DNA from: Chlamydiia bacterium
GTDB lineage: Bacteria; Chlamydiota; Chlamydiia; Chlamydiales; Parachlamydiaceae
Direction: 5' to 3'
Assembly: GCA_038257035.1 (NCBI GenBank)
Contig: JBBSJT010000047.1
Location: forward strand, 1 to 17,210
DNA: 17,210 nucleotides
Made by a program: the position numbers and the translations under genes. Below, one piece after another: positions 5,888 to 17,157 of this stretch. How positions within the stretch are numbered: position 1 is the stretch's first letter; the number at the start of each line of letters is the position of its first letter. The notes beneath the pieces were generated by a model. That model worked only from the letters and a program-made list of their open reading frames with translations, was not told where the DNA came from and did no database searches.

Positions 5888-6931
5888 ATGGAAGATCAAA
5901 TTTCAAATATAACCACTGACGATTTTATCACTCTAACAGACAACCTTTTACAAGGTATTATTCGCATCAGGTATAATGATGGATTGATTACGGCTTTTAA
6001 TGAAAAAGCTTGTAACATGTTGAGTTTAAAAAAAGAAGACGTTTTAAATACCCATTTTTTAAAACATCTAACCGATTCATTTTTTGGATTTTCTATTCAA
6101 AAAGCAATAAATGAAAAAAAAATTACTCCTTTTGCCAAAAATCCTTATGTTAACCAAGAGAATGTTAATCATGAGATGCAAAATTGGACAATTAACTGCT
6201 GTTTTGGAAATGAAAGTCTTATCATCAACTTAAGTGATTTAAGTGAGGATAAAGCAAACAAAAGATTAAAGGATTTAGGTGGCATGACTGCTATGCTTGC
6301 CCACGAAATTAGAAATCCTTTGGGTGGAATCAAAGGATTTGCCTCCCTTTTACGAAAGGACCTCGAAGAAATGCCTCATTTGAGGCAAATGGCGGAATTG
6401 ATTATTGATGGCACGGACAATTTAAATAATTTGGTGACACACATTTTAAATTTTGCTCATCCCCTCAAAATGAAATTTTTTGAAGTCAATTTAACTGAAA
6501 TGGCGGTAAAATTAAAGTCGGCCATCGAAGTAGATGAAAAACTTAAAAACCAGCTTAAAAATCAAAACATTCACTTTGAAGTAAAATCGCTAAAGGAAAG
6601 CATTTACTTGGCGGCAGATGCCGAACTTTTACGCTCCTGCCTCTTTAATTTAATCATCAATGCCATTCAAGCTATGCCAAATGGCGGTAATTTAGCCCTT
6701 CTCCTAGATGAAAATGAACATCATGTGATCATCGAAGTCATTGATGAGGGAACAGGCATAACAGAGCAAAATCTTAAAAAAATCTTTTCGGCATTCTTTA
6801 CGACAAAAGAAGATGGAAATGGTTTTGGTTTGCTTGAAGTCAATAAAGTGGTACAAGCGCATAAGGGAACGATTGAAGTCTATTCCAAGGTCAATTCCGG
6901 AACTACCTTTACTATTAAAATCCCAAAATAA
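5888..6931 (+). CDS. atoS: Cytoplasmic sensor histidine kinase (NtrB/AtoS-like, chlamydial CtcB type) with an N-terminal PAS-like domain
   Basis: H-box AHEIRNPLGGI, N-box NLIINAIQAM, G1 DEGTGI, F-box FFTTK and G2 GNGFGL. No transmembrane segment is apparent. Confidence 0.9.
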   Translation: MEDQISNITTDDFITLTDNLLQGIIRIRYNDGLITAFNEKACNMLSLKKEDVLNTHFLKHLTDSFFGFSIQKAINEKKITPFAKNPYVNQENVNHEMQNWTINCCFGNESLIINLSDLSEDKANKRLKDLGGMTAMLAHEIRNPLGGIKGFASLLRKDLEEMPHLRQMAELIIDGTDNLNNLVTHILNFAHPLKMKFFEVNLTEMAVKLKSAIEVDEKLKNQLKNQNIHFEVKSLKESIYLAADAELLRSCLFNLIINAIQAMPNGGNLALLLDENEHHVIIEVIDEGTGITEQNLKKIFSAFFTTKEDGNGFGLLEVNKVVQAHKGTIEVYSKVNSGTTFTIKIPK

Positions 6932-6940
6932 GGCTTTTAT

Positions 6941-8110
6941 ATGGCAATTGAAAAAATTTTAGTGATCGATGACGAAGAGCTTATACGTCTTTTTTTAAAA
7001 GAGACATTATCGAGGATGCATCTTGATGTCACCTTGGCAAAAAATGGGGCGGAGGCAAATCATGCCTTGAAAAATTCAGGCTTCGATTTGATCATTACCG
7101 ATATGAAATTACCGGATACAACAGGCATCGACATTTTGAAAAAAGCAAAAGAGCTTTACCCTTTAACTCCAGTCATTGTCATTACAGCATTTGGCACCAT
7201 TGAAAATGCAGTTGAGGCAATGAAATTTGGCGCTTTTACTTACTTAATCAAACCATTTTGTGCAGAAACTATTGAAGCTGCAATCGATAAAGTAAAAGAA
7301 CATATTTTATTACTGACTGAAAATCAATACCTAAGAGATCAGGTTGCAACCGGTGGCCGCCACACTAAAAATCAGATTATTGCCAATAGCCCTGCTATGA
7401 AAGAAATTTTAGCGCAAGTTGAACAAGTGGCAAAAAGCAATGCAAGTGTTTTTATTAGCGGTGAATCGGGGACGGGAAAAGAAGTCATTGCTCAAGCAAT
7501 CCACGACAATTCACTTCGTGCTAAAAACCCCTACATCAAAGTAAATTGTGCGGCCGTGCCAGAAACTTTGCTTGAATCGGAGTTTTTTGGCCATGAAAAA
7601 GGTGCCTTTACAGGTGCCATCAATAAGCGCCTTGGTAGGTTTGAGCTTGGTAATACCGGAACTCTTTTTCTTGATGAAGTCACAGAAATCCCTTTGGGTG
7701 TTCAAGCAAAACTTCTTAGAGCTATTCAAGAGCAGGAGTTTGAGCGTGTAGGCGGACATAAATCTGTTAAAGTGGACGTGCGTTTGGTTTCAACAACAAA
7801 TCGAGACATTAAGGAAGCCATCCAAAATAAAGTGATGCGAGAAGATCTTTATTACAGATTAAATGTCGTTCCCATCCACATTCCCCCTTTAAGAACAAGG
7901 CCTGAAGATATCATTCCTCTTGCCGACTATTTCCTCGAACGAGCAAGTGTTGAAAATAAGTCCAAGAAAAAAACCTTAACGGATGCAGCCAAGAAAAAGC
8001 TTAATGCTTACGCATTCCCGGGAAATGTCAGGGAGCTTGGCAATATTATCGAAAGAGCCTCCGTAATGACACAAGGAAACGAGATTGGGGAGGCGGATTT
8101 GTATATTTAG
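6941..8110 (+). CDS. atoC: Sigma54-dependent response regulator (NtrC/AtoC-like, chlamydial CtcC type) lacking the C-terminal HTH
   Basis: Receiver domain (VIDDE, TDMKLP, KPF), Walker A GESGTGKE, GAFTGA, Walker B FLDEV, REDLYYRL and PGNVREL. The protein ends right after the AAA+ domain. Confidence 0.92.
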   Translation: MAIEKILVIDDEELIRLFLKETLSRMHLDVTLAKNGAEANHALKNSGFDLIITDMKLPDTTGIDILKKAKELYPLTPVIVITAFGTIENAVEAMKFGAFTYLIKPFCAETIEAAIDKVKEHILLLTENQYLRDQVATGGRHTKNQIIANSPAMKEILAQVEQVAKSNASVFISGESGTGKEVIAQAIHDNSLRAKNPYIKVNCAAVPETLLESEFFGHEKGAFTGAINKRLGRFELGNTGTLFLDEVTEIPLGVQAKLLRAIQEQEFERVGGHKSVKVDVRLVSTTNRDIKEAIQNKVMREDLYYRLNVVPIHIPPLRTRPEDIIPLADYFLERASVENKSKKKTLTDAAKKKLNAYAFPGNVRELGNIIERASVMTQGNEIGEADLYI

Positions 8111-8153: not shown

Positions 8154-8332
8154 AATTTGCTAATTTGGAGTGCTGTGACCTGTCACAGCTTTGTTCTCAA
8201 ATCGACCAGGGCGTTGCAAGCCCGATTTTTCGGGCTTGAAGCACTCTAAATCGACAATGTCGATTTAGCAGCCCGCCAGGTCGGGCTGAAAACAAAGCTG
8301 TGACAGGTCACAGCACTCCAAATTAGCAAATT
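8154..8332. repeat. REP-doublet (REPIN)-like element with perfect 42 bp arms and three internal hairpins
   Basis: 8154-8195 is the exact reverse complement of 8291-8332. Each arm holds GGAGT followed by the palindrome GCTGTGAC-CT-GTCACAGC. Inner hairpins lie at 8217-8238, 8246-8268 and 8269-8288. Confidence 0.88.
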
Positions 8333-9244: not shown

Positions 9245-11056
9245 CTAAGGTAATTTCAGGGCCATGCGGTTGACTTCGGCCACTTTAAGAAGAAACTTGA
9301 TGCGCTCTTCGTTTAATTCAAGTTTCTTTAAAGCTTTTACTTTATCAGAAAGTTTGCTTAAACGAATATTTCGCACCTCATGGCTGACAAGACCCGAAAA
9401 GACTTCGCCAAACACTTCCAAAATGTATTTGTAGCTATCTTCTTCAAAAAGGTCAGATTCAAAAAGAGCCGCTCTTCCCGTTAAAAGATTGGTCTTCGGT
9501 TCTATTTTTTTTAAAACTTTTGCTTTTTCTTTCATGGTAACAAGTTCTTCAAGAAGAATATTTAAACACGAAATGGAATTGTCTAGACTTGAGAGTAATG
9601 TTTTCTTTAAAGCTTTTATTTTCTTCAATGTCACTTGAGGCATTGAGCCTTCTTTAATTAGTTTTGAAATTTTTGATGCAAATCGATATTTTTTTTGTAG
9701 ATACTGCTTTTTGACGCTTTTAAGTGACTGATTTTTAATGTTCGGAAAGCCAAGCCCCCCTTCTGTTGCATTGATGAGTTGAATTTCAGGATGCTCTTTT
9801 GCAAAATCTCCCATCCATTCCGATTCTACAATCCATTTCCAAAGCGTGTAGATCGGTTTCCCATAAATATCTTTTTTTAAAACAGCTTTTAAATCAAAAT
9901 CTTTTGGGTTTTCATTTTCAAATTTTAAAATTTCATTTTTACTGACATTAGGATCATCAATTATTCCATCTGCGTAACAACGCATTCCTGTAAATCCCAA
10001 ATCCATGCCCACAAAAATAATGGGATGACATCCAAGCGCTTTTGCAATTTCAACTTCAAAATTGATCACATTGTGACCCTCATCCAAAAGAGATTCGCGA
10101 TCAATATTTAATTTATCTTCAAACCACTCTGACACATCATAACCGCCACTTCCGGGAACATAAAGACGTGCTCCTTCAATCAAACTTAAAGCGTCAGGAT
10201 GAATACGGTTTCTAAAGAAAAAAGGGATTTTAACATGGCATGTTTGACTGATGCGCAAAATTTGTGCGGCATTAGGATCTATCCCTGCCCCAAAATGAGG
10301 TGTGATGCCATTTGCAACCAAAGAATTTAACGAAGAGCCTCCTGCAAAAATCAAAGCATGGTCAGATAAAGCTTTTAAGTCTTTAAAATGTTTATTTAAA
10401 GAAGGACCTGCACCGCAAATAATGGCGGGCACATTCTTGAATTTTCCAAAAAGCGAATTGCCAAGAAAGGAGCCTGGCAGTAGTTCCAAGTTTTTATAAT
10501 AATTTTTAAAAAACACCGCCCCATAATCAAGATATTCGCCAACAAGTGAATTATGAAGTAGTTGATCATTTTCTATGCGATGAAGAAGTTTTAAATAAGT
10601 ATCATTTTTTATTTTTTTATAATGTGGTGAGTTTATCACTTTGATTTTTTTCATAAAAAATTCAAAGCGTAAGCCAAGTGTAATCTCTTTGATATCATCA
10701 ATGCGGTCAAAATAGTAGAGTGAAACTTTTGGATCATTCATGATCAGGCTTCCGGTTTCATTTGAAAGAAGATGAAAAATAACCTCTGCATCATCCTCTA
10801 AAAAAATGAGACGACGATCCCCTTGCAGCCATGAAGTTAAAGCTAAATAGCCCTCGCCTTGCCCAAGTCCATAAACAAATAGAACTTCTGTTTCATCAAT
10901 TTCTGATGCATCCAACCATTTCTCTAAAACAGCCTTCGAAGTTCGCTTTTGTTGATTTTTTTCATTTTTAAGATCCAGATAAGGAAGCATCAATGCTTTT
11001 TTTGGGTCTGTTAAAGACCATTTCTCTATATTTTTTTGAAAAAGCACTTCATTCAT
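9245..11056 (-). CDS. Maf/DUF115 (motility-associated factor glycosyltransferase / MptE-like) family protein
   Basis: Motifs VYGLGQG, PAIICGAGPSL, GITPHF..IDP, LGCHPIIFVGMDLGF and LINATEGG. Confidence 0.85.
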   Translation of the reverse strand: MNEVLFQKNIEKWSLTDPKKALMLPYLDLKNEKNQQKRTSKAVLEKWLDASEIDETEVLFVYGLGQGEGYLALTSWLQGDRRLIFLEDDAEVIFHLLSNETGSLIMNDPKVSLYYFDRIDDIKEITLGLRFEFFMKKIKVINSPHYKKIKNDTYLKLLHRIENDQLLHNSLVGEYLDYGAVFFKNYYKNLELLPGSFLGNSLFGKFKNVPAIICGAGPSLNKHFKDLKALSDHALIFAGGSSLNSLVANGITPHFGAGIDPNAAQILRISQTCHVKIPFFFRNRIHPDALSLIEGARLYVPGSGGYDVSEWFEDKLNIDRESLLDEGHNVINFEVEIAKALGCHPIIFVGMDLGFTGMRCYADGIIDDPNVSKNEILKFENENPKDFDLKAVLKKDIYGKPIYTLWKWIVESEWMGDFAKEHPEIQLINATEGGLGFPNIKNQSLKSVKKQYLQKKYRFASKISKLIKEGSMPQVTLKKIKALKKTLLSSLDNSISCLNILLEELVTMKEKAKVLKKIEPKTNLLTGRAALFESDLFEEDSYKYILEVFGEVFSGLVSHEVRNIRLSKLSDKVKALKKLELNEERIKFLLKVAEVNRMALKLP

Positions 11057-13898
11057 TCTTTGTCAGGTCCTGTTTTTCAATAATTTGGCCTATGAATTGC
11101 TGCATCTCATTCATTTGACTTTTCATTAACTTAATCAGAGTACCTAATTGCTCATCTATAGATTTTTGCAGAACCGAAGATTTCCAGATAGGCTCTTCCA
11201 TAAGAAGGGCATTCCCGCTGAATTTTTCTTGAATATCTTTATTGATAGTACTCAATTTTTTTATTTCACTTTGTACGGACTGTAAATCATTTTTCAAATC
11301 TTGTACTTTATTTGCTTGGAGCTGATCTAAAAAGGGAAGCACAAGATCTGCCTTTTGAAAAAGATCATGAATTGATTCCATAAAAATATTAGTCATTTTG
11401 ATCAATTTATCAAAATAATCTTGTTCTTCTACAATCTCTTTTGGTATTTCTCTACCATCTCTTTCAAAACAGCGAATCTCATATCCTGCCTCATCGTGCC
11501 TTACTTCCTGTTTTAAAACTCCGTTATCATACCACCATTTTGAAACACCACTCGGTTTATCAGCCGTGTAGTAGGCTTCGATTAGAAGTTGCCCCTCCGC
11601 ACTCCACATGCGCTCGATTCCTTCTCTTGATCCCATTTTAAATGCAAGTTGACGTTTTAAATTTCCATTTGGATAATAAAGCAATACATCACCATGAAGC
11701 TTTCCTTGAAGGTAGGAAATTGAAGATTTTAAAGTCCCATCCTCATAATAATATTGGTGTAAGCCATTTTCAAGACCCTGTTTGAATTCTTTTTTTGCAA
11801 AAAGATTCCCTGTCAAATAATAAAATTCAGCAATCCCCTCTTTCAAGCCTTTTTCAAACCAGGAGCGTGAGAGCACTTGATCGCCTTTACTCATAAAAAC
11901 TGACAAACCATCAAGTAGTCCCTCTTTCATCTCTGTTGCAAGTTTGCCCCTATTGCTTGATTTTTTATCCTTGATTTTTTTTTGATTTTTTAAATTCGAC
12001 GAAAATATCTTCTCTACATTACTTTTGATGGCGTTCTCTAAAATACTTTTATGAGTATTGATTACCATTTGAAGAAAATGGTTACAATCAAGTTCAAGTT
12101 CAATCCTCGATTTAATTTTTGCATCTTTTAAATCTTTTTCCAAATCATAAAGAAAATAAGGCATGCGCTTTTCAAAAAGCCAAAAATATTTATCGGCAAA
12201 TGGATTTAACACATAACGGCCAAAATCTTCACTTGCCATTTTGTCTCGTAAAGTATCGAGGGTGCGGCATTTTTCTTCAAGAGAATAAGGTTTTTTTGCT
12301 TGGTAATCAGAAATAAAGCTGGAACATTCTGCAATGGCTTCTTTTAACAAATTCTCACATCTCTTTAATGATTTATCTAAACTTTTTAGTCTTTTTAAAA
12401 CATTTTCATCTGTAGTTTCTTCAGAAAAGTGACTGTTTTGAATTTTAGAATGAATTAATCCTTCGAAATCATAACTTTTTTTAAAGTACTTTAAAGCTAC
12501 ATCTTCTAAATTCATATTAACAATATCTGGAAAACCAATTCCACCTTCTGTTGCATTAATCAGGGTAATATCAGGATTGGATTTTGCAAAATAAGTGTAC
12601 CATGATGCTTCATTGATCCATTTCCAAAGCGTCGTTGTAGAATTTCCATAAATATCTTTAAACCCTATAAGCTCATCGTGAGATCCTTTCGTGATAAATG
12701 TGCGTTTATAATTGTGAAGGGCATGAAATTTAATTCCCGGTAAATACGATTGGTTATTTGTATACGCCAAATCCATACCACAAACAATAATGGGATTGCA
12801 CCCTAATGCTTTGGCAATTGACACACTAAAGTTGATCACATTGTAACCCTCATCGATTGGGTCTGACTCTTCTACACCAAATCTTTTTTCAAAAAGTTGA
12901 GGGATGACGTAACCCCCTGCCCCCGTAACATAGAGTTTTTCTCCCGAATGAAGGTTTAAGGCCTCAGGGTAAATACGGTTACGATAAAAAAATGGAGTCT
13001 CATACGCATTATTTCCAAGAAGGCGCATGAGCTGGGTTGGATTTGGATCCACTCCCACAGTCAAGTGAGGAAAAACGTTATAAGAATTTAGGGCATTGAC
13101 TGCCGTTCCTCCTGCAATAATTAAAGCTTTGTCCCCTAAAGTTTTCAGAAGCTGAATATTTTTTTCAAGAGAAGGCCCGGCACCACAAATAATGGCAGGA
13201 ATATTTTCAAATTGGTTAAATAATTTATTTCCAAGATATGAGTTTGGCAATTGTTTTAAGTTTTCATAAAAATTTAAAAAATAAGGAGCACCGCCGATTA
13301 ATAATTCCCCCGACATTGACTGTTTTGAATAGATCGCATGGGAAAAATTAAGAGTTAGATTTTCAACATCCTTGAATCTTTTTTCCTTGTAAAAATCCAA
13401 AGTTGCAAGAAGATAGGGATCAAATAAAAATGCTGTTGTTAATGAATCTAAAGCTGAATTTTCAAAAGCGGCATGATACTCTACATAATGTAGTCGACAT
13501 TGAGAGTTATGCAAAATTTCAGTTGCCATTTCGGTACGCAAAAAAGAAGAAATCATTTTTTTATCATCTTCGATAAAAATTAAAAATCTTGTGAAATCTT
13601 CTTTTAGCCATTTTTTACATGCCTCATAGTAAGCCCCGAGACCTACCCCAAACACATATAAAATTTTAACCCCATTCAAATTTAACTTTGAAAACCAGTT
13701 TAAACATTCTTCTGCCACATTTGTTGAATAAAGGGTTTCATCTTTTGGAAGTTTTAAATTAAGTTCACCCTCCTCATTTTTGAAAATGGGATAGAAAGAA
13801 GAGAATGAAATTTTATCGGCCTCTTGTTTTGAAAAGTAGGAATAACGCTCAAGATTTTTTTTGAAAATCTCTTCTTCATCATTCAAAGATGCAGCCAT
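11049..13898 (-). CDS. Maf/DUF115 family protein fused to MORN-variant repeats and a C-terminal helical region
   Basis: Motifs VFGVGLG, PAIICGAGPSL, LGCNPIIVCGMDLAY and LINATEGG, followed by repeats such as YYEDGTLKS, GKLHG..YYPNGNLK and WYDNGVLKQ. Confidence 0.85.
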   Translation of the reverse strand: MAASLNDEEEIFKKNLERYSYFSKQEADKISFSSFYPIFKNEEGELNLKLPKDETLYSTNVAEECLNWFSKLNLNGVKILYVFGVGLGAYYEACKKWLKEDFTRFLIFIEDDKKMISSFLRTEMATEILHNSQCRLHYVEYHAAFENSALDSLTTAFLFDPYLLATLDFYKEKRFKDVENLTLNFSHAIYSKQSMSGELLIGGAPYFLNFYENLKQLPNSYLGNKLFNQFENIPAIICGAGPSLEKNIQLLKTLGDKALIIAGGTAVNALNSYNVFPHLTVGVDPNPTQLMRLLGNNAYETPFFYRNRIYPEALNLHSGEKLYVTGAGGYVIPQLFEKRFGVEESDPIDEGYNVINFSVSIAKALGCNPIIVCGMDLAYTNNQSYLPGIKFHALHNYKRTFITKGSHDELIGFKDIYGNSTTTLWKWINEASWYTYFAKSNPDITLINATEGGIGFPDIVNMNLEDVALKYFKKSYDFEGLIHSKIQNSHFSEETTDENVLKRLKSLDKSLKRCENLLKEAIAECSSFISDYQAKKPYSLEEKCRTLDTLRDKMASEDFGRYVLNPFADKYFWLFEKRMPYFLYDLEKDLKDAKIKSRIELELDCNHFLQMVINTHKSILENAIKSNVEKIFSSNLKNQKKIKDKKSSNRGKLATEMKEGLLDGLSVFMSKGDQVLSRSWFEKGLKEGIAEFYYLTGNLFAKKEFKQGLENGLHQYYYEDGTLKSSISYLQGKLHGDVLLYYPNGNLKRQLAFKMGSREGIERMWSAEGQLLIEAYYTADKPSGVSKWWYDNGVLKQEVRHDEAGYEIRCFERDGREIPKEIVEEQDYFDKLIKMTNIFMESIHDLFQKADLVLPFLDQLQANKVQDLKNDLQSVQSEIKKLSTINKDIQEKFSGNALLMEEPIWKSSVLQKSIDEQLGTLIKLMKSQMNEMQQFIGQIIEKQDLTKNE

Positions 13899-14311
13899 TT
13901 ATCCCCGCCCACTCGTTTGAATTTTTTCTTGCGTTTGGCGATTTCATCAGCTTTTTGTTTATCTACAGAAACTGTTTCATCAACTGTTTTAGCGGCTTGC
14001 AATTGTAACCTTGCAGCTTCTACTTCCGCTTTTAGTTTCTTTGAAAATTCCATTATTTTTTTCTGTTTTGGATTCAAGCTCGAAGGATTTTTTATCACTT
14101 GTTCCAATTCCGTTTTACTTATCCCACCGGCATTGAAGGTAGACATGTTGAGTTCTGAAAATTTATCCACGAACCCTTTTAGCTGATCAATCCTGGCTTG
14201 AATTTCAGGGGTGACTCTCTCATGGATCGGCTTATCTTTATTTTCATCGACAAGCTTGAATAGATCTGCAAGTTCATGCAGCATTTTTTCTAAAGGATCT
14301 CCAGAATTCAT
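13883..14311 (-). CDS. Hypothetical alpha-helical/coiled-coil protein with a basic C-terminus
   Basis: 142 aa ORF with GGGGG upstream of the ATG. It overlaps the start of the Maf-MORN gene. Confidence 0.75.
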   Translation of the reverse strand: MNSGDPLEKMLHELADLFKLVDENKDKPIHERVTPEIQARIDQLKGFVDKFSELNMSTFNAGGISKTELEQVIKNPSSLNPKQKKIMEFSKKLKAEVEAARLQLQAAKTVDETVSVDKQKADEIAKRKKKFKRVGGDKWLHL

Positions 14312-14350: not shown

Positions 14351-14803
14351 TTAAAGAGAGGATAAAAGTTCTTGATAGGGAGGAATATAGGAAAGAAAGT
14401 TGTATTGCTTCTGTTCTTGATTAAAAAAACCAAATTGGATTTCAGTTTCATTGGCAATGGCAATAAATTTAGCTTTTACATAGTGATTGTACCCGACAAC
14501 TTGATTGATCACCTTAGGAGTCAATTTAACCGCCTTACACTCGATAATTAAAAGTGGGTAAAGATTATGATCCGGATGTATATCTTTTGCAAAGCAGACG
14601 ATATCCGCACGTCTATCAGGGATTTTAATAGGTGAAAGCATAAGATGCGGCATTTGACATAATGCTTTTTCCAGTACAAGAAGGTTTTTCGGAAATTGAA
14701 GATTTTCTATTAAGTGATGGATAAGCTTTTGCCGGACGATCTCTTCCGGCAGGAAAGCCACCCACTCTTTTCTTGTAGAACAATAAATTTTACTAGGTCT
14801 CAA
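14351..14803 (-). CDS. Stand-alone type I restriction HsdR N-terminal-like (PD-(D/E)xK) domain protein
   Basis: Motifs PEEIVRQ, RRADIV, IIECKA and QVVGYN. TTG start 4 nt after the hpf stop. Confidence 0.8.
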   Translation of the reverse strand: MRPSKIYCSTRKEWVAFLPEEIVRQKLIHHLIENLQFPKNLLVLEKALCQMPHLMLSPIKIPDRRADIVCFAKDIHPDHNLYPLLIIECKAVKLTPKVINQVVGYNHYVKAKFIAIANETEIQFGFFNQEQKQYNFLSYIPPYQELLSSL

Positions 14804-14807
14804 ATCT

Positions 14808-15443
14808 TTAAACTTCCGGTTCTATGATAGCAAAGCTATCATCTCTTCTGCGGTAAATGACTTTTAATTTCCTATCAGTTTCATCCTTATAAATTAAAAA
14901 GGCATCACCTGATAATTCAAGTTTCATGATAGCTTCATCACTGGTCAATAATTTTAAAGCCAATTTTTTCTTTCTCTGAATTTTATGAGGAACAAATTTC
15001 ATTGAATTTTTTTGACTATTTTCTTCATCAATGTCATCGTTAATCTCTGTAAGCTCAGCGTCATTTGCAGCTAAAACATTGACATTCATATCTATAGATT
15101 CATTCGGTTTTAAGTGATAATCTTGAATTCTGTCTTTATATTTTAGAAGCTGAGTTTGAAGTCTATCTACAGCTTTATCTATTGAGGCATACATATTTTC
15201 TGAAATTGCATGACTTGTTACTTTTGTATGGCCGGCTTTTAAGACTATATTACAACGATGCTCAAGTTTTTGAACTTCCAAAACGACCGATACATCAATA
15301 ATGCGATTCATAAACTTTTCAATTTTAGAAATCTTTTCCATGGCATAATCTTCCATGGCATCTGTCAGTTCAATGTTTTTTCCCTGTACATCAATATTAT
15401 ATGAAACATCGGCAAATTCAGCAGCTTTTGATTTTCGACTCAT
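14808..15443 (-). CDS. hpf: Ribosome hibernation promoting factor, long form (RaiA/sigma54 modulation protein S30EA)
   Basis: Motifs GKNIELTDAM..Y..EKI, MYASIDKAVDRL..QL and C-terminal DEAIMKLEL....FLIY......VIYRR.D. The ATG at 15443 follows GGAAGG; the ORF track extends to 15488. Confidence 0.92.
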   Translation of the reverse strand: MSRKSKAAEFADVSYNIDVQGKNIELTDAMEDYAMEKISKIEKFMNRIIDVSVVLEVQKLEHRCNIVLKAGHTKVTSHAISENMYASIDKAVDRLQTQLLKYKDRIQDYHLKPNESIDMNVNVLAANDAELTEINDDIDEENSQKNSMKFVPHKIQRKKKLALKLLTSDEAIMKLELSGDAFLIYKDETDRKLKVIYRRRDDSFAIIEPEV

Positions 15444-15559
15444 AAGATACCTTCCATTTTTAGTTAAGTGAAGTGTTAGCTCCCTCAATTCTCATTATAA
15501 CTCTTTAAAATTTATAATATAAAGCAAAAAAAAATAACGATCTATAAAGATAAGGTCTA

Positions 15560-16345
15560 TTAGGATACTGAAATCCCTTGTATAACTCTACGCTCATATG
15601 GAGGATAATCAACCCTAAGCTTTACAAGAACTTGATGACCATTAAAATTTTCTTCACAATAGACCTTCCTAAGTTTTTTTGATTTAAAGTAAATGAAAGA
15701 AAGACAAATGATCGCCTCAACAATTTTTGGTTTTCTATATTGGCTTGATTGAATATCTAATACTGTTTTACAACATTTTTGTGAAGGTTTTAAACGAGGA
15801 TCAAGATGTATGGCAATCCAAGCTGATTCTTGAATGGGTTCAGATCCAAATTTTTCATAAATTTCCGGATCCATAAAATGATAATCTTCTTTGTCATTAA
15901 ATTTCCCATGTAACAGCTTTCCAATACTTTTGATGGTTATATTTTTTGGAATCCAAAAGATCAAAAATTGCTCTCCTATTTTATTATTCGTAAAGGCAGA
16001 ACTGATTTTGAAAATTTTGCCTATATTATTTGGCAATGCTTCCCACGCTTTATGTTTTTCAGAAAAGCCAAAATCATAGCCTAGATAAAGCTTGAAACTA
16101 TCGGGATTTATAAGCTTATCTCTATAAATGACATATTTCAAAAGAGCAGGATCATCAGATACTATTTTCCAATTTTTATTCACTAAAGCTAATTTTAAAA
16201 TTTTTTCAAAATTTAAAAATGAAAAAACATGGTTTAGAACATCATTAGGAATACTTTTAAAAGGGTCTTCCTGGAGGGATTCCCGATCGTGAAAACGGTA
16301 ATAAACATCATTATATAAATTTTTCATACCTCGATAGATATTCAT
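15560..16345 (-). CDS. F-box domain protein (candidate effector)
   Basis: F-box pattern IPNDVLNHVFSFL...LALVNKNWKIVSDD. The ATG at 16345 has AGGAGG upstream and overlaps the previous stop (ATGA). Confidence 0.8.
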   Translation of the reverse strand: MNIYRGMKNLYNDVYYRFHDRESLQEDPFKSIPNDVLNHVFSFLNFEKILKLALVNKNWKIVSDDPALLKYVIYRDKLINPDSFKLYLGYDFGFSEKHKAWEALPNNIGKIFKISSAFTNNKIGEQFLIFWIPKNITIKSIGKLLHGKFNDKEDYHFMDPEIYEKFGSEPIQESAWIAIHLDPRLKPSQKCCKTVLDIQSSQYRKPKIVEAIICLSFIYFKSKKLRKVYCEENFNGHQVLVKLRVDYPPYERRVIQGISVS

Positions 16346-17157
16346 TGAACACACCCTCCTGTTGAAGTATTTATCCGTGGCCAGGGGCCATAATGAACAG
16401 AAATTCCTTCAAGATAGCCTTGACTAAAACGTCTCAGGCTTACCGTGACTTGGACTCCATTCACCTGACAATGATTATTAAAAATACACCGAAAATCTCC
16501 TCTTCGATTTTTTAAATAGACGGAAGAAATACAAACTATGGACTCTAATATTGTCGGTTTTCTGAACTTGTTGTCACTCATTTTAAGGTCAAAACTATCT
16601 CCACAAACCCATCCATATCTTTTTTGTCGTAATTGCATGACAACAAAAGCCGATTCTTCTAAAGGAACATCCCCTAATTCCTTACGAATGTTTGGTTCCA
16701 TTAGATAATAATCAGTTGCCTTCCTGGTTGCTTTTTTGAAAAGCTCTCCAAAATTATTGATGGTTGTACATTTTGGCATCCAGACTATTATGTGCTTAAT
16801 AGTAGGTGAACTTTTTAAAATTTTACCAATGGTAATGGGCAATGCATCCCATGCTTTTTGATTTTTAGCGTCTCTCAAATTCAATCCAAGATGCTTTTGC
16901 CAATCGGAAGGCTTAAAAACGATATCTTTATAAACCAAATATTTTAACAATTCAGCATTATCGGATAATACATTCCACTTCTTATTGACAAGGCTTATGT
17001 TGTGGGCAACTTCACAACAATTTAATAAAGGAAAAATATGTTTTAAAAAAATATCGTCCGGGACAATCTTTTGAGGGCCTTCTTCAAAGTTCTCAGGATC
17101 ATTAATCTTATAATATAAAAACATGCAAAAATTTCGCACTTCATGGTAAGCATTCAT
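16342..17157 (-). CDS. F-box domain protein (candidate effector), paralog of the downstream gene
   Basis: F-box pattern VPDDIFLKHIFPLL...ISLVNKKWNVLSDN, with a GGAG RBS. It shares many motifs with 15560-16345. Confidence 0.8.
   Translation of the reverse strand: MNAYHEVRNFCMFLYYKINDPENFEEGPQKIVPDDIFLKHIFPLLNCCEVAHNISLVNKKWNVLSDNAELLKYLVYKDIVFKPSDWQKHLGLNLRDAKNQKAWDALPITIGKILKSSPTIKHIIVWMPKCTTINNFGELFKKATRKATDYYLMEPNIRKELGDVPLEESAFVVMQLRQKRYGWVCGDSFDLKMSDNKFRKPTILESIVCISSVYLKNRRGDFRCIFNNHCQVNGVQVTVSLRRFSQGYLEGISVHYGPWPRINTSTGGCVQ

Follow-up and report, generated by a model that had tools for sequence, protein, structure and literature searches.

Why would a bacterium without flagellin keep two Maf genes side by side? 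To our knowledge, Maf enzymes are known only as flagellin modifiers. Two paralogous Maf genes, here called mafS and mafL, lie next to each other on contig JBBSJT010000047.1 of a Chlamydiia bacterium of the Parachlamydiaceae (contig C47 in our labelling, in which G, C, L and f mark genomes, contigs, loci and families). The stretch that we analysed, referred to below as the window, is this entire 17,210-base contig, and the genome to which it belongs is a 2.37-Mb assembly of 210 contigs that is 95.83% complete. We found that the Maf cluster is kept by most environmental chlamydiae, nearly all of which encode no recognisable flagellin. The answer that we favour, with moderate confidence, is that the two genes belong to a working cytoplasmic, non-flagellar Maf-type O-glycosylation system, which would use a donor of the pseudaminic acid (Pse) type and in which a MORN-repeat module, perhaps together with a small helical protein, would choose the acceptor.

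A first-pass annotation of the window had described two full-length Maf/DUF115 paralogues that share four motifs (PAIICGAGPSL, DEG.NVINF, TLWKWI and LINATEGG), overlap each other by 8 nucleotides (nt) and are overlapped by an upstream gene for a helical protein of 142 amino acids (aa), all in a window free of flagellar and sugar-biosynthesis genes. This description held. Both open reading frames (ORFs) lie exactly where it had placed them and both match PF01973, all four motifs occur in both proteins, the mafL/mafS overlap is 8 nt and that between the small gene and mafL is 16 nt, and no flagellar or sugar-nucleotide gene was found among the 15 window ORFs that we scanned with Pfam and NCBIfam. 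In the order of the minus strand, the genes and modules concerned are as follows.

14808-15488, minus strand: hpf, ribosome hibernation factor (TIGR00741, 85.6 bits, above the cut-off)
14351-14803, minus strand: gene with an HSDR_N_2 domain (Pfam E 1.8e-19)
13883-14311, minus strand: small helical-protein gene, 142 aa, of a chlamydia-only family
11049-13898, minus strand: mafL, 949 aa, Maf plus MORN plus helical tail, PF01973 domain at 12756-13274
11409-11951, minus strand: MORN_2 repeat module of MafL, residues ~650-830 (PF07661, E 7.3e-18)
11052-11396, minus strand: C-terminal helical tail of MafL, residues 835-949, with an E..WK motif invariant in the alignment
9245-11056, minus strand: mafS, 603 aa, Maf core only, PF01973 domain at 9989-10507

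As judged by profile comparison, MafL and MafS are of the Maf type and not of the MptE type. Both exceed the Pfam cut-off of 34.6 bits for PF01973 (MafS 141.0 bits, E 4.3e-41; MafL 147.0 bits, E 6.2e-43), and the two are 36% identical over 582 residues (E 2e-109). Their only strong relative by sequence in the Protein Data Bank (PDB) is 5mu5_A, the Maf of Magnetospirillum magneticum AMB-1, which the single-protein searches recovered at E 1.5e-6 and 2e-3. A profile of 81 chlamydial sequences matched 5mu5_A at E 7.8e-12 (47.5 bits) versus E 0.0039 (18.8 bits) for 8sd5_A, an archaeal MptE-type kinase of 241 aa. Names in the databases point both ways: Pfam labels the PF01973 domain 'MptE-like' and NCBI names some orthologues so, and other orthologues are auto-annotated as 'motility associated factor glycosyltransferase family protein'. 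The named database homologues, those of Protochlamydia and Parachlamydia, agree with a chlamydial source for the genes.

The catalytic residues of characterised Mafs have acidic counterparts in both proteins. E324 and D415 of 5mu5 are critical, and their equivalents are required in two other Mafs, according to the accessible part of a preprint that cites the structure paper (bioRxiv 10.1101/2020.06.03.131540). These positions align to D260 and D352 in MafS and to D284 and D376 in MafL, and the codons assigned by alignment to 5mu5_A are these:

10400-10414, minus strand: MafS GxGPS loop
10277-10279, minus strand: MafS Asp260
10001-10003, minus strand: MafS Asp352
13047-13049, minus strand: MafL Asp284
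12771-12773, minus strand: MafL Asp376

In an alignment of 64 chlamydial Mafs, two from the window and 62 from fetched loci, 63 have Asp at the first catalytic position; at the second, 63 have Asp and one has Glu. The GPS residues of the loop are conserved in 63 of the 64 proteins and the first Gly in 62. The first-pass annotation had named grouping with MptE kinases and loss of the Maf site as an outcome that would count against it; what we found was a profile that prefers the Maf structure and catalytic acids that are kept. Against the NCBIfam PseD model (640 positions; cut-off 670), MafL aligned over 2-634 and MafS over 73-530, scoring 80.8 and 63.9 bits, respectively. These scores lie so far below the cut-off that the two proteins are distant members of the family and not PseD orthologues, and the Pfam model Maf_flag10_N had no match in either at E<=0.01. 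For the three-part layout of a complete Maf (N-terminal, central and C-terminal helical domains), the coverage of the PseD model and the lack of a Maf_flag10_N match thus point in different directions. A simple hydropathy scan found no signal peptide, signal-like N-terminus or membrane span in MafL or MafS, which fits action in the cytoplasm, as the available part of PMC4065374 describes for Aeromonas Maf1.

With Maf-type enzymes in place, the substrate on which such enzymes are known to act is missing. Searches for Flagellin_N, Flagellin_C (5 candidates scored) and the rod/hook domain Flg_bb_rod (10 scored) gave no match in the 95.83%-complete genome, so that the genome-wide search proposed by the first-pass annotation turned up no flagellin for these enzymes to modify. 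For the phylum as a whole, we searched 401 genomes and scored 400 for PF01973; all counts are of genomes searched, which are related, in some cases incomplete, and not independent trials. Flagellin_N exceeded its cut-off in eight of 400 genomes, each of another family, and in none of the 45 from the window's family. PF01973 matched in 330 of 400 genomes (329 over the cut-off), usually twice per genome, and was rare or absent in family f4, with genomes of 1.0-1.2 Mb (0/29), in f3 (1/23) and in f10 (0/5). The suggestion that the pair is the peculiarity of one chlamydial lineage was therefore too narrow: the cluster is conserved in most non-Chlamydiaceae-like families, and it also stands beside flagellin in flagellated chlamydiae.

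MafL is more than a longer Maf, a point that the first-pass annotation had overlooked. Its Maf region is followed by MORN_2 repeats, which a profile search of the PDB matched to the MORN domain of SET7/9 (E 5.3e-5), and then by the helical tail of ~115 aa. To place this architecture we compared 38 loci, of which 20 surround Mafs (20 genomes, 13 families) and 18 come from five flagellated genomes. The MORN region of MafL matches standalone ORFs of 167-356 aa that directly follow a Maf, 19 of them across the 38 loci; in other families MORN and Maf are fused, as in MafL, and many MafS-like database proteins carry MORN too. A MORN module always accompanies chlamydial Mafs, as a fusion or as the next gene, flagellin- and NeuB-linked copies included. 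Fusion in some lineages and adjacency in others argue for a functional, and probably physical, partnership with the Maf, and the module is a candidate for the part that binds the acceptor or a partner. In one flagellated genome (G348), a Maf-MORN pair adjoins a flagellin gene (L085) and another adjoins DegT and NeuB (L084), a placement that links the chlamydial module to the canonical context of flagellin and nonulosonic acid.

The gene upstream of mafL encodes a candidate accessory or adaptor protein. Its family has 32 database relatives, all of them chlamydial, unnamed or 'hypothetical', and none with a Pfam domain. The hallmark of the small protein is a basic C-terminal motif, RKKKFKxLGGxxxWxPL, in which G135 and W139 are invariant in 33 sequences; searched for as a shared substrate tag, the motif occurred in the small protein alone among 4,533 ORFs of the genome. 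An AlphaFold model built on the 33-row alignment (pLDDT 70.7, pTM 0.42) has four helices, predicted at residues 6-23, 35-61, 66-74 and 81-134, the last of them 54 residues long. In 15 of the 38 fetched loci, a hidden Markov model of the family located the small protein immediately upstream of the Maf array; three of these loci are from flagellated genomes (two hpf-linked) and none is a flagellin-linked copy. Comparison with the tails of MafL by hhalign gave a probability of 85% (E 5.8e-6) and suggests, as a lead, that the helical body of the small protein is related to the C-terminal tail of MafL; the kinship is tentative because the identity is only 9%, in helical, charged sequence.

Structure searches named no relative outside the family. 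Foldseek of the model against the PDB gave no match at E<=0.001, and the best score in the VIA wide fold search (Z 6.0) was to generic helical hairpins, in the noise range for helical proteins. FlgN (2fup_A) and chlamydial CT398 (4ilo_B) appeared in that search at Z 4.8, inside the noise. The PDB profile search with the small protein returned designer or coiled-coil matches only, and a search of the ESM Atlas returned no usable match. Identity with FliJ (PF02050) was considered and rejected, as the protein scored 20.9 bits against a cut-off of 28.4 and one of 33 family members matched at E<=0.01.

The Mafs occupy a recurrent chromosomal slot. Across families the order is hpf, HSDR_N, in some cases the small protein, one to three Mafs, after which come, in convergent orientation, a sigma-54 response regulator and a histidine kinase, with rpsD next in some loci; hpf and HSDR_N both fell inside the fetched stretch in 12 of the 20 first loci, and the regulator in 13 of 20. 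The slot is empty in one f3 genome (hpf-HSDR_N-kinase-regulator) and in one f4 genome (regulator-hpf-HSDR_N-recO). In G310, of the window's own family (L100, G310:C1, 5279-7193), a 502-aa NAD-binding/DUF2867 protein is found in the Maf position, and a weak small-protein-like ORF lies beside its gene (BLAST E 0.001). We also considered the HSDR_N gene as a component of the Maf system and rejected it, since it was present with hpf in five of five Maf-less genomes searched, which makes both genes conserved neighbours and not parts of the system.

In the window, gaps of 4 nt between hpf and the HSDR_N gene and of 39 nt between the HSDR_N gene and the small gene precede the overlapping genes, and a sigma-70-like site, which is a consensus match only, lies upstream of hpf at 15523-15494. 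hpf is likely to be the first gene of the Maf transcription unit, and the HSDR_N gene is probably co-transcribed with the Maf block, yet not Maf-specific. A sigma-54 promoter upstream of the operon was rejected: the consensus TGGCAC-N5-TTGC with <=2 mismatches matched 12 times in the window against 11.5 expected by chance, with no match well placed.

The two paralogues are old. We built a maximum-likelihood tree of 63 Mafs (first 620 residues, LG+G4, midpoint-rooted, SH-aLRT support only; a 396-aa fragment was omitted), in which MafS groups with other last-in-array genes (13 in all, four families; SH-aLRT 94) and MafL with other first-in-array, MORN-fused genes (nine in all, likewise four families; SH-aLRT 100). 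That these orthologue groups span families indicates that the MafL/MafS duplication is old and that both copies have been retained. The extra Mafs of flagellated genomes form a clade of 10 of their own (SH-aLRT 100), and three Mafs of flagellated genomes stand beside the non-flagellate radiation (support 86), two of them hpf-linked (G104, G288). Since the tree has no non-chlamydial outgroup, it gives neither the direction of events nor which context is ancestral.

Separately, the flagellated genomes G145, G348 and G398 hold a third, divergent class of ~500-aa PF01973 proteins (66-85 bits; L080, L087, L088 and L091), which BLAST with the window's Mafs had missed. A flagellin gene is close to one member (L087), another is flanked by NeuB and a UbiE-type methyltransferase gene (L088), and a third lies beside UbiE-type and menaquinone genes, with a Kdo (3-deoxy-D-manno-octulosonate) transferase gene ~3 kb away (L091).

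The first-pass annotation had called for a search of donor pathways, and a Pse-type pathway was indeed found, incomplete by curated models. PseB, at 482.8 bits, exceeds its equivalog cut-off of 407.75, and PseC, at 424.3 bits, barely passes its own of 423.5. A NeuB-family synthase (Pfam, 262 bits) is present, and its gene overlaps that of a 322-aa protein of which a PseH-like GNAT domain makes up half. There is also a 250-aa cytidylyltransferase separate from KdsB. Of 380 genomes, 96 have an orthologue of this cytidylyltransferase (E<=1e-25); they belong to exactly those families that have a strong NeuB, and the gene is often beside NeuB. The shared distribution and the adjacency make it the likely synthetase of the cytidine monophosphate (CMP)-nonulosonate. 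PseB, over its cut-off in 96 of 391 genomes, follows the same family pattern. Within the window's family (n=45), 39 genomes have both Maf and NeuB, one has Maf only (G244), one NeuB only (G376) and four have neither (G095, G310, G382, G399).

Several details of these genes deserve record. The NeuB-family gene encodes 358 aa (C20, locus L008 8464-10505, minus strand) and is followed by the gene for the 322-aa protein, whose N-terminal half is DUF218-like and whose other half is the GNAT domain. Many relatives have a NeuB open frame of ~500-560 aa, so that a fusion or split differs from genome to genome. kdsB is split over contig ends, with model positions 2-139 on C59 and 88-248 on C82, where it adjoins pyrG. 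PseB shares a contig with the Maf cluster, at a distance of 2-25 kb, in over 20 genomes that belong to several families (for example G215:C19, G184:C10 and G162:C22), a loose linkage that is not visible in the fragmented genome of the window.

Expression data are available for a relative. The four ORFs of locus L056 match recorded proteins of Protochlamydia amoebophila UWE25 letter for letter; their tags, pc1358-pc1361, were deduced from accession numbers and are consistent with the Pfam column of supplementary file 2 of PMC5451489. In that study, pc1358-pc1361 are a hypothetical gene followed by three consecutive MAF_flag10 genes, and they and two pathway genes were assigned as follows (temporal class; presence in the elementary-body proteome).

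pc1358: hypothetical; late II; yes
pc1359: MAF_flag10; late II; no
pc1360: MAF_flag10; late II; yes
pc1361: MAF_flag10; no temporal class; yes
pc0349: pseB; late I; yes
pc1264: pseI; constitutive; no

Late genes were tied there to the transition from reticulate body to elementary body and to elementary-body function, with type III secretion genes among them, and pc1358-pc1361 were all negative by EffectiveT3 (Koenig et al. 2017, PMC5451489). The text of that paper makes no mention of Maf, pseudaminic acid or glycosylation. Among public runs, no RNA run is listed for the window's own organism.

Taken together, gene anatomy, family membership, catalytic residues, absence of flagellin, the sugar pathway, conservation and synteny, and late expression in a relative are what we observed, and from them we infer a glycosyltransferase activity, its donor, its protein acceptor and the adaptor roles. 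The locus would be the local copy of an ancient, phylum-wide module of cytoplasmic Maf-type transferases and MORN, joined in one clade by the small helical protein. MafL and MafS, catalytically intact to judge by their residues, would be made from one operon that probably starts at hpf, and would most likely act in the bacterial cytoplasm, moving a CMP-activated 2-keto-3-deoxy acid sugar to Ser/Thr residues of at least one protein other than flagellin. In this genome the sugar would be a Pse-type nonulosonic acid made by PseB, PseC, the PseH-like protein, the NeuB-family synthase and the cytidylyltransferase. By analogy with the TPR domain of Shewanella oneidensis Maf-1, or with the small protein GlfM that serves Maf-2 there (see below), the MORN module and perhaps the small protein would pick the acceptor. 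If the Protochlamydia amoebophila orthologues are a guide, the system would be active late, at conversion to the infectious elementary body.

As for the acceptor, PMC4065374 places the action of Aeromonas Maf1 in the cytoplasm, ahead of type III export, which makes non-flagellar type III substrates or other elementary-body proteins reasonable candidates. The first-pass annotation had proposed a repurposed, possibly heteromeric, glycosyltransferase system acting on type III secretion parts, effectors or the small helical protein. The enzymatic half of that proposal gains from the Maf type, the lack of flagellin and the presence of a donor pathway, the acceptors that it listed are still guesses, and a MafL/MafS heteromer is putative. 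We noted two adjacent ORFs of ~895 aa on C83 (2861-8321, minus strand) with ~20% Ser+Thr, against a median of 11.7% among ORFs of at least 200 aa; these are possible surface proteins, and hence possible candidates for glycosylation. How the system came about is more doubtful. Loss of the flagellum by chlamydiae, followed by re-aiming of Maf, MORN and Pse at non-flagellar type III substrates or other elementary-body proteins, is a scenario that we put forward tentatively and would not expect to hold in full.

A number of observations weigh against a Pse-fed system directed at proteins other than flagellin, and they are best seen together. By curated models the pathway falls short at several steps: the synthase lies below the equivalog cut-offs for both NeuB (331 against 400) and PseI (293 against 340), the PseH-like GNAT scores 70.8 bits against 93.1, the cytidylyltransferase scores 26.5 bits against 205.7 on the PseF model, and PseG was not found in this 95.8%-complete genome, the best TIGR03590 match being a 380-aa ORF with 25.2 bits against 153.55. 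The genes concerned are scattered over six different contigs, so that co-occurrence alone links them. The data on timing come from another genus than the window's organism. The hpf-linked module also occurs in flagellated chlamydiae, and flagellin could be the ancestral, perhaps the sole, substrate there. The analysis identified no acceptor, and that the target would be a protein is a presumption. Finally, four families carry Mafs and almost none of the pathway:

f6: Maf 68/69; PseB 2/67; NeuB-linked cytidylyltransferase 0/65
f8: Maf 35/35; PseB 0/35; NeuB-linked cytidylyltransferase 0/33
f9: Maf 89/90; PseB 1/88; NeuB-linked cytidylyltransferase 0/86
f30: Maf 16/17; PseB 0/15; NeuB-linked cytidylyltransferase 0/14

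NeuB-like matches in these families are weak (best E 1e-4 to 1e-13), save in two f6 genomes. Pseudaminic acid thus cannot be required everywhere.

Another donor is needed in the families without the Pse pathway, and CMP-Kdo is the obvious candidate because two Mafs are reported to transfer Kdo: the Mafs of Geobacillus and Clostridium can place it on Ser/Thr, according to the accessible part of bioRxiv 10.1101/2020.06.03.131540. The same enzymes might therefore use CMP-Kdo in the window's organism as well, with the Pse pathway serving elsewhere or serving one paralogue only. Mafs with intact catalytic residues in families that have no PseB, strong NeuB or NeuB-linked cytidylyltransferase speak for this, as does the KdsB encoded here next to pyrG. 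CMP-Kdo, moreover, is made by every chlamydia that makes lipopolysaccharide (LPS). Against it stand the joint presence or absence of Maf and NeuB in 43 of the 45 genomes of the window's family, the location of PseB within 25 kb of the Maf cluster in the genomes noted above, and the Maf-MORN pair directly beside DegT-NeuB in a flagellated chlamydia. On these comparisons of gene content, the donor in this genome is probably a Pse-type sugar; CMP-Kdo is a serious alternative because Pse-less families carry Maf, and as an account of this locus we regard it as unlikely while giving it real weight.

The remaining explanations change the target, or deny the activity, and all are less likely than cytoplasmic O-glycosylation of a non-flagellin protein. 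The enzymes could add an ulosonic acid at the inner membrane, to LPS, a different glycan or a lipid, with MORN tethering them to membrane lipid. In some eukaryotic proteins MORN repeats associate with lipid or membrane, chlamydial LPS is rich in Kdo, and our analysis found no protein acceptor; set against this, the characterised Mafs covered by the accessible parts of the literature reviewed all modify Ser/Thr of flagellin, Maf-MORN adjoins flagellin genes in flagellated chlamydiae, and no membrane span was found, all of which leaves a non-protein acceptor improbable. We give still less credit to export of MafL, or of the entire set, into the host, where the eukaryote-like MORN repeats would steer it to host membranes and host proteins would be modified. 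The window does encode another eukaryote-like protein, with an F-box, and elementary bodies of a relative contain the proteins (PMC5451489), but EffectiveT3 was negative for all four Protochlamydia amoebophila orthologues, the CMP-sugar donor is made inside the bacterium, and MORN is paired with flagellin-linked Mafs too. Equally hard to credit is a functionless relic of flagellin glycosylation, or an MptE-like kinase in place of a glycosyltransferase. The database names are in favour of the kinase, and chlamydial ancestors may have been flagellated, as the title of PMC5604735 suggests; yet 330 of 400 genomes have open frames, 63 of 64 proteins retain the catalytic residues, there are paralogue expansions and gene fusions, a relative expresses the orthologues and has yielded their proteins, and the profile prefers a Maf to an MptE-type kinase, which at 241 aa is also much shorter than proteins of 603 and 949 aa.

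Intact, duplicated and MORN-fused Mafs in about four-fifths of the sampled chlamydial genomes, nearly all of them without flagellin, point to a class of Maf substrates not yet recognised, and to protein glycosylation that has gone unstudied in a phylum where genetic manipulation is difficult. The pairing of Maf with MORN would be a third way, besides TPR and GlfM, for Mafs to find an acceptor. Should the re-aiming of Maf, MORN and Pse that we put forward tentatively above have taken place, infectious particles of environmental chlamydiae would bear O-glycoproteins with pseudaminic acid (or Kdo) that are important for entry into or survival in amoebae, and the small-genome families of animal pathogens would later have dropped the entire system. 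The Maf would then be the first to have an acceptor other than flagellin, and the phylum would gain its first defined system of protein O-glycosylation. No discussion of Maf or of nonulosonic-acid glycosylation in chlamydiae turned up in the literature, in a search that many subscription papers and most supplements lay outside, and nothing relevant on chlamydiae with DUF115, chlamydiae with pseudaminic acid, MORN with Maf, or the locus tags. The main texts of two papers on chlamydial genomics do not mention Maf, pseudaminic or sialic acid, or flagellin. pseB and pseI had already been named in Protochlamydia in a supplementary table (PMC5451489). What appears to be new is that the module is conserved across the phylum, sits in a fixed chromosomal slot, has MORN as an obligatory partner and is decoupled from flagellin, together with the small-protein family.

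The rest of the window holds other features of note. A histidine kinase and a sigma-54-type response regulator are encoded at 5888-8110 on the plus strand and are conserved neighbours of the Maf block across families. The regulator, of 389 aa, matches AtoC/NtrC models only to about position 386 of 461, and by this comparison it seems to be a sigma-54-type regulator without the usual C-terminal DNA-binding part. The gap between the convergent regulator and a HAD-like gene contains an inverted repeat pair (8154-8210 and 8276-8332; 57 nt, 91% complementary, arms 65 nt apart), each arm of which contains the palindrome GCTGTGACCTGTCACAGC followed by a T-run; it may be a bidirectional terminator or a small mobile repeat. 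Just upstream of hpf, the ORF for the eukaryote-like F-box protein (Pfam E 6e-8) and a family-less 271-aa ORF overlap (15560-16354 and 16342-17157, both minus strand), and a weakly similar F-box ORF is present in locus L055 of the same genus.

Among known systems, the locus can be set beside that of Shewanella oneidensis, in which Maf-1 binds flagellin by its own TPR domain and Maf-2 needs the cis-encoded four-helix protein GlfM, as described in the available part of bioRxiv 10.1101/2023.12.03.569772. As far as that source goes, both organisms have paralogous Mafs and a Pse pathway in the genome, both have one Maf with a C-terminal repeat domain (TPR for acceptor binding in Shewanella, MORN here), and in both a bare Maf core is encoded near a gene for a small helical protein (GlfM there, the 142-aa protein here). 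The differences within the same scope are that here there is no flagellin, the repeats are MORN and not TPR, and the genes are in an hpf operon and not in a flagellar/Pse island. GlfM, compared by its description in that part of the preprint, is an 89-aa four-helix bundle with a conserved Asp in the last helix, whereas the protein of the window has 142 aa and a long basic C-terminal helix.

The other comparisons agree in the core of the enzyme and diverge around it. With the Magnetospirillum Maf, MafL and MafS share the GxGPS loop and both catalytic acidic positions in the alignment; only the central domain shows identity, at a low level, E324 is replaced by Asp, and 5mu5 is without MORN. Aeromonas caviae Maf1 and Campylobacter PseD, PseE and Maf4 are cytoplasmic Maf-family transferases of Pse or legionaminic acid to Ser/Thr, and the PseD model covers nearly all of MafL; the scores of the window's enzymes lie far below the cut-off of that model, and the flagellin that is the substrate of those enzymes is absent. 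The Maf-MORN pairs of the flagellated chlamydiae (G348, G104, G145, G288 and G398) have the same two-part module and are 31-41% identical to MafS over 487-626 aligned residues. These genomes share the hpf-linked copy with the small protein (L077, L092), and, unlike the genome studied here, they have flagellins and additional Maf-MORN copies beside flagellin or DegT-NeuB that form a separate clade (SH-aLRT 100).

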